Positions 59,369 through 64,000 of a stretch of 64,000 nucleotides of DNA are shown here, in pieces. The notes beneath the pieces were generated by a model, which was not told the origin of the DNA, did no database searches, and worked only from the letters and a program-made list of their open reading frames with translations. Source of the stretch: Pseudomonas sp. (GTDB taxonomy: Bacteria; Pseudomonadota; Gammaproteobacteria; Pseudomonadales; Pseudomonadaceae). Each line of letters starts with the position of its first letter. Within the stretch, counting starts at the first letter, position 1. The stretch spans positions 2,385 to 66,384 of the forward strand of contig NZ_JAUXMX010000034.1 of NCBI RefSeq assembly GCF_030683065.1, in the 5' to 3' direction. A program made the translations under genes and the position numbers.

Positions 59369-60805
59369 GTGACTGAGCAAGTCGAAAGTCTTATCAAGCA
59401 GGACTACGCAGCTGGATTTCATTCAAATATCGAGTCGGACACCCTGCCGCCCGGCCTGAATGAAGACACCGTGCGCTTTATCTCGGGGAAAAAAGGCGAG
59501 CCTCAATGGCTGCTGGACTGGCGCCTGAAAGCGTTTCGCGCCTGGCTTGAAATGGACGAGCCAACCTGGGCTCATGTGCATTACCCGGAAATCGACTTCC
59601 AGGCCATCTCCTACTTTTCCGCCCCGAAAAGCATGGCCGACAAACCCAAGAGCCTGGATGAAGTTGATCCAGAGCTGATTGCTACCTACAAAAAACTCGG
59701 CATTCCGCTGCATGAGCAGGAAATGCTCGCCGGGGTAGCGGTGGATGCGGTATTTGATTCGGTCTCGGTGGTCACCACCTACCGTGCCAAGCTGGAAGAA
59801 GCCGGGGTGATTTTCTGCCCGATCAGTGAGGCTGTGCACCGCTGTCCTGAGCTGATCCAGAAGTACCTAGGCAGTGTGGTGCCGCAAAAGGACAACTATT
59901 ACGCCGCGCTTAATTCGGCGGTGTTCTCAGACGGCTCCTTTGTCTACATCCCCAAGGGCGTGCGCTGCCCCATGGAGTTGTCCACCTATTTCCGCATCAA
60001 CGAAATGAACACCGGGCAGTTCGAGCGGACCCTGATCATTGCCGAGGAAGGCGCCCACGTCAGTTACCTCGAAGGCTGCACCGCACCGATGCGCGATGAA
60101 AATCAGCTGCACGCGGCGGTGGTTGAGTTGGTCGCATTGGATAACGCGACCATCAAGTATTCGACGGTACAGAACTGGTACCCGGGTAATGCCGAGGGCA
60201 AGGGCGGCATCTACAACTTCGTGACCAAGCGCGGCATTTGCCACACCAGCGCGAAGATTTCCTGGACCCAAGTCGAAACCGGTTCGGCGGTCACCTGGAA
60301 ATACCCCAGCTGTATTCTCAAAGGGGACAACAGCGTGGGCGAGTTCTACTCGGTGGCCCTGACCAATAATTTCCAGCAAGCCGACACCGGCACCAAGATG
60401 ATCCACCTGGGTAAGAACACCCGTTCGACGATTATTGCCAAAGGCATTTCCGCAGGCCGCAGCAACAGTGCCTACCGCGGCCTGGTGCGCATCAATCCGG
60501 GAGCTGATGGGGCGCGCAACTATACCCAGTGCGACTCGCTGTTGATTGGCGACCGCTGTGGCGCACACACCTTCCCCTATATCGAAAGCAAAAACCCCAC
60601 GGCAGTGGTCGAGCACGAAGCGACCACGTCCAAGGTCAGCGATGACCAGATGTTTCTCTGTCAGCAGCGCGGACTGGATGCCGAGAAGGCCATTTCGATG
60701 ATCGTCAACGGCTTTTGCCGCGACGTGTTCAAGGAGTTGCCGATGGAGTTCGCGGTTGAAGCCGGCAAGTTGCTGGAAGTCAGTCTCGAAGGTTCAGTGG
60801 GTTGA
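59369..60805 (+). CDS. sufB: Fe-S cluster assembly scaffold SufB
   Basis: 478 aa. GTG start with GAGGTG upstream. Near-colinear with E. coli SufB as I remember it ([45 protein letters not shown]). Confidence 0.96.
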
Positions 60806-60865
60806 CCTGAACACCTTACAGCGGCCTTGAATGCCCCCAATTCATGCAGATATCAGGCATTAAAT

Positions 60866-61615
60866 ATGTTATCAGTCAAAGACTTACACGCAAAAGTTGA
60901 AGGCCTTGAAATTCTTAAGGGTCTTGCTATCGAGATCAAGCCCGGCGAAGTGCATGCCATTATGGGCCCCAATGGTTCCGGCAAAAGCACCTTGGGCAAT
61001 GTGCTCTCGGGGCGTCCGGGCTATGAAGCCACTGCGGGCGTCATCACCTTCAAGGGCCATGATTTGCTGGCCATGAGCACCGAAGAGCGTGCTCGTGAAG
61101 GCTTGTTTCTGGCTTTCCAGTACCCAGTGGAAATTCCTGGCGTGAGCAATATGGAATTTCTCAAGGTGTCGGTGGATGCCAAGCGCAAGCACGCTGGCCT
61201 GCCTGCGCTGTCGGCGGTCGAGTTTATGAAACTGGCTCGGGCTACCAGTCAGCGAGTGGATCTTGATGCGAGCTTTTTAAAGCGCGGGGTTAACGAAGGT
61301 TTTTCCGGCGGCGAGAAAAAGCGCAACGAGATCATGCAGATGATGCTGCTTGAACCTGATCTGTGCATTCTCGATGAAACCGACTCGGGGCTGGATATCG
61401 ATGCCCTGCAATTGGTCGCCGAAGGCGTTAACAGCATGCGTGACGGCAAGCGTAGCTTTATCGTGGTGACCCACTACCAGCGTCTGCTGGACTACATCGT
61501 GCCGGATTTTGTACATGTGCTGGCCGATGGCCGTATCGTCAAATCCGGTGACAAGAGCCTGGCCCTCGAATTGGAAGCCAAAGGTTACAGCTGGTTGGAA
61601 AACGAGGTCGCCTGA
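60866..61615 (+). CDS. sufC: Fe-S cluster assembly ATPase SufC
   Basis: Start at MLSVKDLHAKVEG (ATG 60866). Walker A GPNGSGKST and ABC signature FSGGEKKR. Confidence 0.95.
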   Translation: MLSVKDLHAKVEGLEILKGLAIEIKPGEVHAIMGPNGSGKSTLGNVLSGRPGYEATAGVITFKGHDLLAMSTEERAREGLFLAFQYPVEIPGVSNMEFLKVSVDAKRKHAGLPALSAVEFMKLARATSQRVDLDASFLKRGVNEGFSGGEKKRNEIMQMMLLEPDLCILDETDSGLDIDALQLVAEGVNSMRDGKRSFIVVTHYQRLLDYIVPDFVHVLADGRIVKSGDKSLALELEAKGYSWLENEVA

Positions 61616-61619
61616 AACC

Positions 61620-62927
61620 ATGACTGACTTTCAAAAAAACGCCATCACCCTGGCTGCCGAGCAAAGCACGCCGGCCTGGCTAGCTGCCTTGCGCCATCAG
61701 GGCGCAGCCGACTGGTCGGCGGCCGCTTGGCCAGGGCGCAAAACCGAGCTATGGCAGAACACCACGCTGGCCCCCCTGCAAACCAACGGCCCAGTCCGCT
61801 GGGCCTCTGCTGGTACTAACGACTGGCAGGCCAGCGTCGAAACCATGCCGTTGGACGCTACCCGGCTGGTGTTTGTCAACGGTCAGTTCGCTGCCGAGCA
61901 TTCCAGCCCATTGCCGGAAGAAGTGGTGCGCTTTGCCGATGCCAATGCCGCACAGCAACAGCTGATTGAGCAGCACTTGGGGCAGGTGGTCGATGTCCAG
62001 CGGCACCTGTTTGCTGCACTCAGCAACGCTTGGCTTGCGGATGGGATTCTGCTGCAGGTGCGTCAAGGTCAGACGCTCGACAAGCCGGTGTATATTCTCA
62101 ACGTCTCGACCCCCGAGGCGCAGCCTGCGGTGAGCAATCAGCGCGTGCTGTTAGTGCTGGAAGACAGCAGCCAGGCGGAAGTCATCGAGCATTACGTTTC
62201 CAGCTCTGCGCAACAGAATGGCTTCGTCAATTGCCTGACCGAGATAGTGGTGGGTGCCAATGCCCGGCTGCAGCATTACCGCATCAACCTGGAGCAGGAA
62301 GACCTGCTGCATGTCGGTGGCGTGCATGTGAACCTGCAACGCGACGCGCATTTTTACGGTTTCACCCTGGCCCAGGGTAGCCGCCTGAAACGCATCGACT
62401 ACCAGGTCAACCACCGTGGCCCAGGTGCGCACCTGGAACTGCACGGCGTCTATCTGCCGCGCAACAAGCAGCAGATCGACTACCACACCAACGTCGAGCA
62501 CTGCGTGCCGCACTGCACTACCAAGGAAATTTTCCGCGGCATTATTGGTGATTCGGCCAGGGCGGTGTTCAACGGGCGCATTCATATCCATCCCCAGGCC
62601 CAGAAGACCTTGGCCGAGCTCAGCAACAAGAACCTGCTGACCTCGCGCAGCGCCGAGGTTTACACCAAGCCGGAGCTGGAAATCTACGCCGACGATGTGC
62701 GCTGCGCCCATGGTGCGACCATCACCCAGCTCGATCAGACCTCGCTGTTTTACCTGCAGAGCCGCGGGCTGTCGCATGCCGAGGCCATGAGCATGCTCAG
62801 TTTCGGGTTTATCAATGAGCTGCTTAACCAGGTGCCGGAGCCGGCCATTCAGGCCTATTTGCGCCCGCGCATCGCTGCTCTGCTTGGCCGTGAAGCAGTC
62901 CATCTGGAGCAACTGAACGATGAGTGA
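61620..62927 (+). CDS. sufD: Fe-S cluster assembly protein SufD
   Basis: Start at MTDFQKNAITLAAEQ (ATG 61620), giving 435 aa. SufB/D-family C-terminal beta-helix. Confidence 0.9.
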   Translation: MTDFQKNAITLAAEQSTPAWLAALRHQGAADWSAAAWPGRKTELWQNTTLAPLQTNGPVRWASAGTNDWQASVETMPLDATRLVFVNGQFAAEHSSPLPEEVVRFADANAAQQQLIEQHLGQVVDVQRHLFAALSNAWLADGILLQVRQGQTLDKPVYILNVSTPEAQPAVSNQRVLLVLEDSSQAEVIEHYVSSSAQQNGFVNCLTEIVVGANARLQHYRINLEQEDLLHVGGVHVNLQRDAHFYGFTLAQGSRLKRIDYQVNHRGPGAHLELHGVYLPRNKQQIDYHTNVEHCVPHCTTKEIFRGIIGDSARAVFNGRIHIHPQAQKTLAELSNKNLLTSRSAEVYTKPELEIYADDVRCAHGATITQLDQTSLFYLQSRGLSHAEAMSMLSFGFINELLNQVPEPAIQAYLRPRIAALLGREAVHLEQLNDE

Positions 62928-64000
62928 GCACGCCCTGCAACCGCTGCCGAGCTTTGACGCCGAACGGGTCCGCAAGGATTTTCCGATTCTGCACCAACAG
63001 GTCAACGGTCATCCGCTGGTTTACCTGGACAATGCCGCCACCACGCAAAAACCCGAGGTGGTGATTCAGGCCATCGTCGATTACTACCGCCAGGACAACA
63101 GCAATGTGCACCGTGGCGCTCACGCCCTGGCCGAGCGCGCTACCGAGAAATTCGAGGCGGCGCGCGGCAAGGTCGCCGGTTTGCTCAATGCGCCGCACAG
63201 CCGGCAGATTATCTGGACCCGTGGCACCACCGAGGGCATCAATCTGGTAGCCGCCAGTTGGGGGCGCAGTCAGTTGCAGGCCGGCGACCGGATTTTGGTT
63301 TCGGCCATGGAGCATCACTCCAATATCGTGCCCTGGCAGATGATTGCCGCCGAGCGCGGTGCCACGGTCGAGGCGATTCCGGTGGATGCCAGCGGCACGC
63401 TGAACATGAGCGCTTTTGCCGACATGCTTGATGAGCGTGTACGCATGGTCGCCTGCGCGCAGGTGTCTAACGCCTTGGGCAGTATCAACCCGGTTGAGGA
63501 CATCGTGCGCATGGCCCATGGCGTAGGTGCACTGTGCCTGGTCGACGGTGCCCAGGCCATCAGCCATTGGCCGGTGGATGTGCAGGCGCTGGACTGCGAT
63601 TTTTATGTGTTTTCCGCCCACAAGCTGTTTGGCCCCACCGGGCTGGGCGTGTTGTATGGCAAGGCTCAATTGCTGGAAAGCATGCCGCCTTACCAAGGGG
63701 GCGGTGAGATGATCGAATCGGTGAGTTTTGCCGGCACCACCTACAACCAGCTGCCTTACAAGTTTGAAGCAGGCACCCCGGATATTGCCGGGGTGATTGG
63801 ACTCGGTGCAGCCGTTGATTATGTGCAAAGCCTTGACCGCGTGGCCGCGGCGGCGCACGAACAGGCTTTGCTGGCCTATGCCGAGGAGCGCGCCAAGGCT
63901 ACGCCGGGGATGCGCCTGGTAGGCACCGCCACGCACAAGGCTGCGGTAATGAGTTTTTTGCTGGAGGGCGCGCATCCGCACGATGTGGGTATGTTGCTCG
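62920..64000 (+). CDS. sufS: cysteine desulfurase SufS (class II), 3'-truncated by the window end
   Basis: Not in the ORF track because no stop falls in the window. Hand translation from ATG 62920 gives MSEHALQPLPSFDAERVRKDFPILHQQVNGHPLVYLDNAATTQKPEV..., the PLP-Lys motif FSAHKLFGPTGLGVLYGK, and HPHDVGMLL at the edge. 8-nt overlap with sufD. Confidence 0.92.
   Translation, partial: MSEHALQPLPSFDAERVRKDFPILHQQVNGHPLVYLDNAATTQKPEVVIQAIVDYYRQDNSNVHRGAHALAERATEKFEAARGKVAGLLNAPHSRQIIWTRGTTEGINLVAASWGRSQLQAGDRILVSAMEHHSNIVPWQMIAAERGATVEAIPVDASGTLNMSAFADMLDERVRMVACAQVSNALGSINPVEDIVRMAHGVGALCLVDGAQAISHWPVDVQALDCDFYVFSAHKLFGPTGLGVLYGKAQLLESMPPYQGGGEMIESVSFAGTTYNQLPYKFEAGTPDIAGVIGLGAAVDYVQSLDRVAAAAHEQALLAYAEERAKATPGMRLVGTATHKAAVMSFLLEGAHPHDVGMLL

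Follow-up and report, generated by a model that had tools for sequence, protein, structure and literature searches.

A suf operon in the rnhB-dnaE spacer of a Pseudomonas lineage and its likely origin from a cheV-iscR-suf locus

How does a SUF (sulfur mobilization) operon come to lie next to rnhB in a genus that otherwise builds Fe-S clusters with the ISC (iron-sulfur cluster) system? The question is raised by a 64,000-nt stretch of DNA from Pseudomonas sp. (assembly GCF_030683065.1, contig NZ_JAUXMX010000034.1, positions 2,385 to 66,384 of the forward strand), referred to below as the window, in which rnhB is followed by suf genes that reach the right end. A survey of 139 Pseudomonadales genomes found nearly all of them to have ISC only, and most Pseudomonas to have retained ISC rather than SUF; P. 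aeruginosa, described as an ISC-only species in the initial annotation of the window, is stated to be one (PMC11559095). SUF of the E. coli type (SufABCDSET) was the sole system of the basal Halopseudomonas and of P. phragmitis, and a Terrabacteria-type SufBCDSTU, ascribed to horizontal transfer, was present as an additional system in P. cavernae and P. frederiksbergensis (PMC11559095). In the same 2024 study, E. coli SUF was able to substitute for ISC in P. aeruginosa, with poor performance under oxidative stress, which was read as a rationale for the genus keeping ISC (PMC11559095).

The account that we regard, as a whole, as likely is the following. A 7.6-kb chromosomal piece from a member of the Pseudomonadaceae that carried SUF would have entered the 130-bp rnhB-dnaE spacer of an ancestor shared by two sister species of Pseudomonas, both relatives of P. 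paeninsulae. The piece would have been excised from a locus of the order cheV-iscR-sufB-sufC-sufD-sufS-sufA-sufT-sufE, carrying with it half of cheV and the gene of an IscR-type repressor/activator. The seven structural genes would then have been inherited vertically while the two passenger genes decayed, leaving the operon under the control of the resident IscR.

A complete suf operon behind rnhB

Gene identities were judged against NCBIfam curated cut-offs (in bits). The rnhB gene (RNase HII; 57723 to 58334, plus strand) scored 319 versus a cut-off of 251 (NF000596). It is followed by 1,034 bp without an intact gene and then, also on the plus strand, by sufB [59369 to 60805; 478 amino acids (aa), GTG start; NF008773, 903 versus 717], sufC, encoding an ABC-type ATPase (60866 to 61615; 249 aa; TIGR01978, 352 versus 213), sufD (61620 to 62927; 435 aa; TIGR01981, 272 versus 222), and sufS, which begins at 62920, shares its first 8 bp with sufD, and is truncated by the window end at 64000, with 360 of its 414 codons inside. 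Even when truncated, SufS exceeds the TIGR01979 cut-off of 475 (492, or 581 at full length). The order sufB-sufC-sufD-sufS behind rnhB and decayed DNA, as proposed in the initial annotation, is thus upheld.

That annotation had seen neither sufA nor sufE. Both genes, together with sufT, lie just past position 64000; they seemed absent because the window ends before them. The continuation is provided by L089, a JGI contig that is 98.5% identical to the window across 12.3 kb with zero gaps and is on this ground assigned to the window species. Coordinates past 64000 are window-equivalent (L089 coordinate plus 51619). L089 reads lpxB-rnhB, an 82-aa Rrf2 fragment, sufB-sufC-sufD-sufS-sufA-sufT-sufE, and dnaE-accA-tilS-pyrG; the anticipated dnaE is therefore present downstream. 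In this contig, sufS ends at 64164 and is followed by sufA (64212 to 64568), sufT (64584 to 65105; TIGR03406, 240 versus 203), and sufE (65149 to 65571; also present in L085, described below, and L001). SufA is supported at the subfamily level (TIGR00049, 93.5 versus 58.8), scoring under the SufA equivalog cut-offs. SufE matches the Pfam SufE family and E. coli SufE structures (110 bits) and conserves the cysteine motif GCQSQVW; since it falls under the NCBIfam equivalog cut-off (131 versus 160), we assign it by family membership and operon context. Short contigs retrieved by an exact-protein SufB look-up also extend the operon by sufA.

The predicted proteins retain their functional residues. 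SufB of the window strongly matches E. coli SufB [Protein Data Bank (PDB) entry 5awf; phmmer E = 3e-201], and its motifs LEGCTAP, TQCDS, and VEHEATTS align with E. coli C254, C405, and E434, all conserved. The SufD segment DDVRCAHGAT aligns with E. coli VKCSHGAT, so that the equivalent of H360 is conserved as well (site residues as defined for E. coli in PMC5571166). SufS has the pyridoxal phosphate (PLP) lysine motif FSAHKLFGPTG inside the window and, in L089, the catalytic cysteine motif RTGSHCAQP 12 codons past the window end, which identifies it by sequence as a type II cysteine desulfurase. With SufB, SufC, SufD, SufS, SufE, SufA, and SufT, the operon classifies as a proteobacterial SufE-type SUF system. 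It does not classify as Terrabacteria-type SufBCDSTU because SufE and SufA are present and no SufU/NifU-type gene was called in L085 or L089.

Judged from these features, the operon is expected to follow the usual proteobacterial SUF pathway. SufS would take sulfur from cysteine and SufE would pass the persulfide to SufB C254; the cluster would be built at the SufB C405/E434 / SufD H360 site of the SufBC2D complex, powered by SufC, and handed on via the A-type carrier SufA, with SufT acting as a maturation factor. An isc operon (iscRSUA-hscBA-fdx) is not in the 64-kb window.

The DNA on the 5′ side of the insert belongs to a genuine Pseudomonas rather than a Halopseudomonas, as indicated by RnhB, which is 95 to 96% identical to that of P. 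paeninsulae, Pseudomonas sp. CC6-YY-74, and several Pseudomonas metagenome-assembled genomes (MAGs) and 91 to 92% identical to that of P. borbori and P. benzenivorans. The gene order there, established from open reading frames (ORFs) and Pfam-annotated homologous loci, is uppS-cdsA-dxr-rseP-bamA-skp-lpxD-fabZ-lpxA-lpxB-rnhB. Near-identical DNA occurs in groundwater, lake-water, wastewater, runoff, seawater, and sediment metagenomes.

To define the insert, we compared suf-positive and suf-negative genomes. The three closest suf-negative genomes, P. paeninsulae (CP141799.1, L083), Pseudomonas sp. CC6-YY-74 (CP019947.1, L084), and Logan contig L179, all have rnhB followed after 130 bp by dnaE. 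The window species and a sister species represented by the MAG GCA_030656145.1 (L085, with L086 to L088) share one 7.6-kb block with the same junctions. Homology to L083 and L084 ends at 58315, which sets the left junction at ~58315/58316, within the last rnhB codons. The last two codons and the stop are replaced by the insert, and the C terminus, ALLDD in the suf-negative relatives, is altered in the window. By alignment, the right junction lies at ~65911, 82 bp upstream of the dnaE start (~65994); dnaE therefore retains its own conserved upstream region. In total, ~52 bp of the former spacer was exchanged for 7,595 bp (58316 to ~65910). Because close relatives, including P. paeninsulae, have the short spacer, the suf block is best described as an insertion, as the initial annotation had it. 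The length of RnhB was tried as a proxy for the insertion and rejected, as other 203- to 204-aa RnhB proteins have unrelated C termini.

The distribution of the block fits a single gain of suf in an ancestor shared by the two suf-positive species, since in flanking genes these species are closest to each other: they are 90.6% identical across the cdsA-rnhB block, while the identity of each to the suf-negative genomes, a tight group of three (97.5 to 98%), is 87.6 to 88.0%.

A further observation concerns the two halves of the insert. Between L089 and L085, the region from cdsA to sufD (~47849 to 62927) is ~90.6% identical, with synonymous divergence (dS) of 0.29 to 0.46, and the region from sufS through dnaE (62920 to 68600) is 94 to 96.5% identical (dS of 0.15 to 0.24). 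The greater similarity on the sufS-dnaE side suggests that the right half of the insert later recombined between the two suf-positive lineages.

Passenger remnants and the donor type

The 1,034 bp between rnhB and sufB contain the remnants of two genes, recognized only by tblastn with donor proteins. Residues 161 to 230 of CheV from L090, an uncultured Pseudomonas sp. MAG, match 58429 to 58638 (plus strand; 47% identity, E = 3e-15), a remnant of the receiver domain. The entire 58316 to 58797 segment appears, on this evidence, to represent the 3′ portion of cheV in decayed form. L089 has the same remnant, and L085 retains another part (residues 263 to 297). Three ORFs called in the gap, 58405 to 58788 (minus strand), 58447 to 58641 (plus strand), and 59174 to 59422 (minus strand), had no Pfam match and were discarded as spurious.

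The second remnant, at 58863 to 59231 (plus strand), aligns over the full length of the intact IscR-type Rrf2 regulator of L090 (160 aa), at 42% identity. An in-frame stop interrupts it at 59109 to 59111, and it has lost 37 codons, including those of two of the three cluster-ligand cysteines. It matches only positions 1 to 63 of TIGR02010 (46 bits versus a cut-off of 208), while the intact L090 regulator passes (210.8 versus 207.55). With the winged helix and three cysteine ligands of IscR as the standard, the window copy is accordingly classified as a pseudogene. The L085 copy is more degraded still. Because the gap holds remnants of both genes, the sequence indicates that the insert was cut from a locus of the form cheV-iscR-suf, with cheV and iscR traveling as passengers. 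Passenger DNA is now 70 to 78% identical to the donor type, and the suf genes are ~90% identical.

Intact loci of this form are found in L090 and in two other uncultured Pseudomonas sp. MAGs, L091 (GCA_053579815.1) and L095 (GCA_040384025.1), which read MazG-methyltransferase-DUF4136-cheV-iscR-sufBCDSATE followed by a convergent mlaE/F/D-type operon. They share with the window the same operon, at ~90% nucleotide identity over 6.5 kb and 94 to 95% concatenated protein identity (88.7% for L095), the same promoter/operator block, and the same iscR-sufB spacer. They differ in that the regulator (160 to 164 aa) and cheV are intact and the flank is the mlaE/F/D-type operon; the window has fragments of the two genes, and its flanks are rnhB and dnaE.

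SufD homologs were listed as the 120 best matches (identity of at least 66%). SufD of the window is 99 to 100% identical to that of other sequences of its species, 94% to L085, 89 to 92% to L090, L091, and others, 85 to 86% to L092 to L094, and 81% to L095; from ~76% downward, the matches belong to the Halopseudomonas lineage, and Cellvibrio follows at 67 to 68%. The Halopseudomonas lineage is taken here to include some species that NCBI keeps under the name Pseudomonas. In a neighbor-joining tree of the seven concatenated proteins (SufBCDSATE), the window lineage lies inside a clade of MAGs with intact iscR-suf loci (L090, L091, L092, and L095); L095, with its cheV context, branches off first within this clade, to which Halopseudomonas is sister. 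The concatenated identity of the window is 94.8% to L090, 88.7% to L095, and 79.8% to H. formosensis. Taken together, the Suf tree and the cheV fragment point to the direction of movement, from a cheV-context genome to the rnhB-dnaE spacer, and identify the cheV-iscR-sufBCDSATE layout as the donor type.

Several attempts and observations bear on the donor-type genomes. Placing these MAGs by CheV was uninformative: named homologs are at most 65% identical, and the copy of Pseudomonas sp. M30-35 is in another neighborhood. Look-ups of the proteins flanking the suf locus in L090, L091, and L095 in 90% clusters returned MAG names only. L090 has an IS605-family OrfB/TnpB gene (2390 to 3535) 3.6 kb upstream of cheV; this element is absent from L091 and L095 and has left no trace in the window insert. 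In L092, L093, and L094 (JGI samples 3300060880, 3300061568, and 3300060905), iscR-sufBCDSATE (SufD, 85%) lies in a third context, with a ybiT-type ABC-F gene, yjbR, and bacA downstream of it. Each of these contigs breaks off 300 to 450 bp upstream of iscR, a possible sign of a variable or repeated boundary. Their ABC-F protein shares 90% clusters with P. putida and P. fluorescens group strains, which marks this host, too, as a genuine Pseudomonas.

Outside this clade, the order iscR-sufBCDS-sufA-sufT-sufE is identical in H. formosensis (L010) and in many marine gammaproteobacteria. H. formosensis proteins are 88% (SufB), 89% (SufC), 69% (SufD), and 78% (SufS) identical to those of the window. 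Many marine gammaproteobacteria (L005, L007, L009, L018, L021, L025 to L030, and L033) have a pair of iscR and iscS-like desulfurase genes directly upstream of sufBCDS, a hybrid isc/suf layout, and in Alcanivorax (L038 and L041), a divergent iscR-iscS pair lies downstream of sufE.

We next consider the route of entry. No integrase or transposase domain was recorded for any called gene of the block in L085 or L089, a transfer RNA (tRNA) scan and an Rfam search gave no match in or around it, a repeat search revealed no flanking repeat above chance, and a search of the PLSDB plasmid database returned distant suf genes only. The initial annotation had also described the composition of the suf genes as foreign, with neighboring core genes at about 65% GC. 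This part did not hold. The window averages 59.5% GC, and the suf genes match the 20 neighboring core genes with which they were compared in GC content (0.54 to 0.62, mean 0.582, versus 0.593 ± 0.038), in GC at third codon positions (GC3; 0.64 to 0.74, mean 0.711, versus 0.710 ± 0.057), and in codon-usage distance to the core pool (0.10 to 0.15 versus 0.147 ± 0.027). The spot counts of 60-nt lines on which the claim was based are uninformative because lines of the core block vary as widely (42 to 73% GC in the rpsB-rnhB block and 38 to 72% in suf). The suf genes are thus indistinguishable from their neighbors in composition. Since integrase or transposase genes, tRNA genes, flanking repeats, and deviant composition are all lacking, the block does not classify as a genomic island or integrative element of the classical kind. 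With no mobile-element machinery, the most likely route would be that foreign DNA was taken up and then integrated by illegitimate or microhomology-assisted recombination.

Upstream of the dead regulator, a 34-nt block (58798 to 58831, plus strand), AATACTTGACTAGAATGCTTGGTTATTGCATTGT, has remained conserved. It comprises a −35 element TTGACT (58803 to 58808), a 17-nt spacer, and CATTGT (58826 to 58831). In a seven-sequence alignment of 129 columns that included H. formosensis, 20 of the 29 invariant positions fell within the block (fragment positions 39 to 72). It is retained in both the window and L085, that is, in both lineages with a dead regulator. The iscR-sufB spacer (59232 to 59368, plus strand) is almost invariant across this suf clade, and a promoter scan of it found no sigma-70–like promoter; a spacer that is promoterless and near-invariant suggests that suf is cotranscribed with iscR. 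We infer that the 34-nt block remains the operon promoter and Rrf2 operator. Transcription would start there and read through the pseudogene, and control has probably passed to the host’s resident IscR. Binding of the resident IscR to this block would explain why a redundant imported iscR could decay.

Maintenance of the operon and competing histories

In both suf-positive species, which are ~10% apart in DNA sequence, all seven suf ORFs are intact. Between these species, the ratio of nonsynonymous to synonymous divergence (dN/dS) is 0.009 to 0.070 for the seven genes, equal to that of skp, lpxA, lpxB, rnhB, and dnaE. The dS values of suf (0.16 to 0.43) lie in the range of the flanking genes (0.15 to 0.46). 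The low ratios and the matching dS values indicate that suf has co-diverged with its flanks since the gain, under strong purifying selection. In a freshwater metatranscriptome (X22), a few sufC/sufD and sufS fragments at least 99% identical to the window (0 to 2 mismatches) were detected.

These results bear directly on whether the operon could be a decaying or silent relic that contributes nothing. Such a fate is suggested by the death of its own regulator, by the decay of the adjoining DNA, and by the poor performance of heterologous E. coli SUF under stress in P. aeruginosa (PMC11559095). However, a relic would not be expected to keep seven intact ORFs in both species at the dN/dS of lpxA, lpxB, and dnaE, to hold its sequence while the passenger DNA drifted, or to conserve each of the catalytic residues checked, and the near-identical RNA-library fragments point the same way; we consider this reading very unlikely. 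An assembly or binning chimera that joins a Pseudomonas contig to the suf contig of another organism might be suspected, since most of what is known of the window organism comes from metagenomes. Yet, the same rnhB-suf junction recurs in at least six assemblies that are independent and come from different samples and sources (Logan contigs L002, L087, and L088; JGI contigs L086 and L089; and the NCBI MAG L085), and the right junction to dnaE is present in L085 and L089. In addition, in run X9, a data set of 115 Mb, a 47-kb contig of uniform depth 17 spans 57500 to 64000 at ~96.6% identity; the run resembles the genome of a single organism, possibly a cultured strain, with the insertion. The probability of a chimera is therefore negligible. 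Inheritance of an ancestral rnhB-suf-dnaE arrangement from early Pseudomonadaceae, with clean deletion in almost all Pseudomonas, draws on the fact that the nearest outgroup of the Suf proteins is Halopseudomonas, a basal, SUF-only group of the same family (PMC11559095). It would require many independent precise deletions, though, and in the suf-negative relatives the 130-bp spacer is undisturbed and rnhB ends normally. Moreover, suf is not beside rnhB in H. formosensis, L090, L091, or L095, and a block that starts with half of cheV is sensible only as a fragment of a cheV-iscR-suf locus. We judge this history highly improbable.

A relocation or duplication within one genome, from a cheV-mla locus to the spacer, or an exchange among very close relatives, is harder to set aside, though still unlikely in our estimation. 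The donor-type MAGs are themselves named Pseudomonas sp.; the codon usage of suf equals that of the host; and dS of suf between the window and L090 (0.33 to 0.50) is no larger than core-gene dS between the window and P. paeninsulae (0.44 to 0.84). Against such a move, CheV of L090 has no homolog above 65% identity in any named Pseudomonas, and the best match, that of strain M30-35, sits in a different neighborhood. P. paeninsulae, P. borbori, and P. benzenivorans are absent among the 120 best SufD matches; the named entries in that list are at 68 to 76%, among the Halopseudomonas species, to which some still called Pseudomonas are assigned here. The L090 and L091 flanks also fall in 90% protein clusters without cultured species. 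Other points weigh against the account of transfer, retention, and resident control as a whole. Composition yields no independent sign of foreign origin. The suf-positive clade is drawn from pairwise distances without an outgroup, not from a rooted tree. The X22 fragments count for little, as they could be DNA carry-over, and most metatranscriptome contigs are cross-matches from other organisms at 90 to 95% identity. The regulatory model is founded on sequence conservation; a consensus promoter scan found no strong sigma-70 match at the 34-nt block, and the apparent resemblance of this block to the E. coli IscR type-1 consensus is no more than a lead. Acquisition of a cheV-iscR-suf piece from another member of the Pseudomonadaceae nevertheless remains the reading that we prefer.

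Loss of csdA and relation to known systems

The initial annotation had linked the suf genes to a loss of csdA elsewhere in the window. The loss itself was confirmed. The tcdA gene (35701 to 36504; ThiF family) and csdE (36634 to 37044, minus strand; SufE family, Pfam, 133 bits) are intact and are followed by a ~146-bp csdA stub (37045 to 37190), from which ~1,052 bp has been cleanly deleted internally compared to L098, and by dapD (37330 to 38364, minus strand). All of the ~55 related metagenome contigs that cover the site have a full-length csdA between csdE and dapD; the deletion is real and has so far been seen in this lineage only. Long ORFs at 13442 to 15151, 22824 to 25311, 29646 to 31199, 34001 to 35500, and 37336 to 38872 were also examined; none had a Pfam match, at least the last is antisense to dapD, and they provide no evidence of decay.

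In E. coli, cross-talk between CsdA and SufBCD is known. As in the CsdA-CsdE-TcdA (CsdL) relay of that organism, and as in relatives of the window species, csdE and tcdA stand side by side, but here csdA is only a stub, while every relative sampled keeps it. It is speculation that SufS now serves CsdE. Joined with the regulatory model, this would mean that the resident IscR took over the operator and that SufS made CsdA dispensable by feeding CsdE and TcdA; at the extreme, SUF would be the main or only system of the host, with ISC reduced or lost. We put this combined scenario forward as a rather improbable one.

Compared to described systems, the operon resembles that of Halopseudomonas and P. 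phragmitis in having a SufBC2D scaffold, SufS with SufE as acceptor, SufA, and SufT. Unlike Halopseudomonas, the window host stands near P. paeninsulae and is not basal, the rnhB-dnaE position is derived, and the regulator is a pseudogene. The suf operon of E. coli differs in that sufA comes first and control is exerted by Fur, OxyR, and IscR; in the window species, sufA comes after sufS. With P. cavernae and P. frederiksbergensis, the lineage shares a horizontally acquired SUF in an otherwise ISC-only genus, but their system is built with SufU; the one described here, which originates within the Pseudomonadaceae, has SufE and SufA instead. Acquisition of SUF by Pseudomonas is thus already known, and horizontal transfer of a housekeeping-type operon is ordinary. 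What is added is a further acquired Pseudomonas SUF, of the Halopseudomonas/proteobacterial type, with mapped junctions, a donor context, and a decayed regulator.

Overall, the lineage offers a natural counter-example to an ISC-only genus: a proteobacterial SUF that has been kept under core-gene–like purifying selection through speciation, in bacteria whose habitats include groundwater, lakes, and wastewater. The same suf operon occurs in at least three chromosomal contexts among uncultured Pseudomonas-labeled genomes, with no visible mobile element. The locus thereby provides a system for asking what benefit SUF brings to Pseudomonas, how a host may control an acquired operon after the loss of its regulator, and whether a second desulfurase would make CsdA dispensable.

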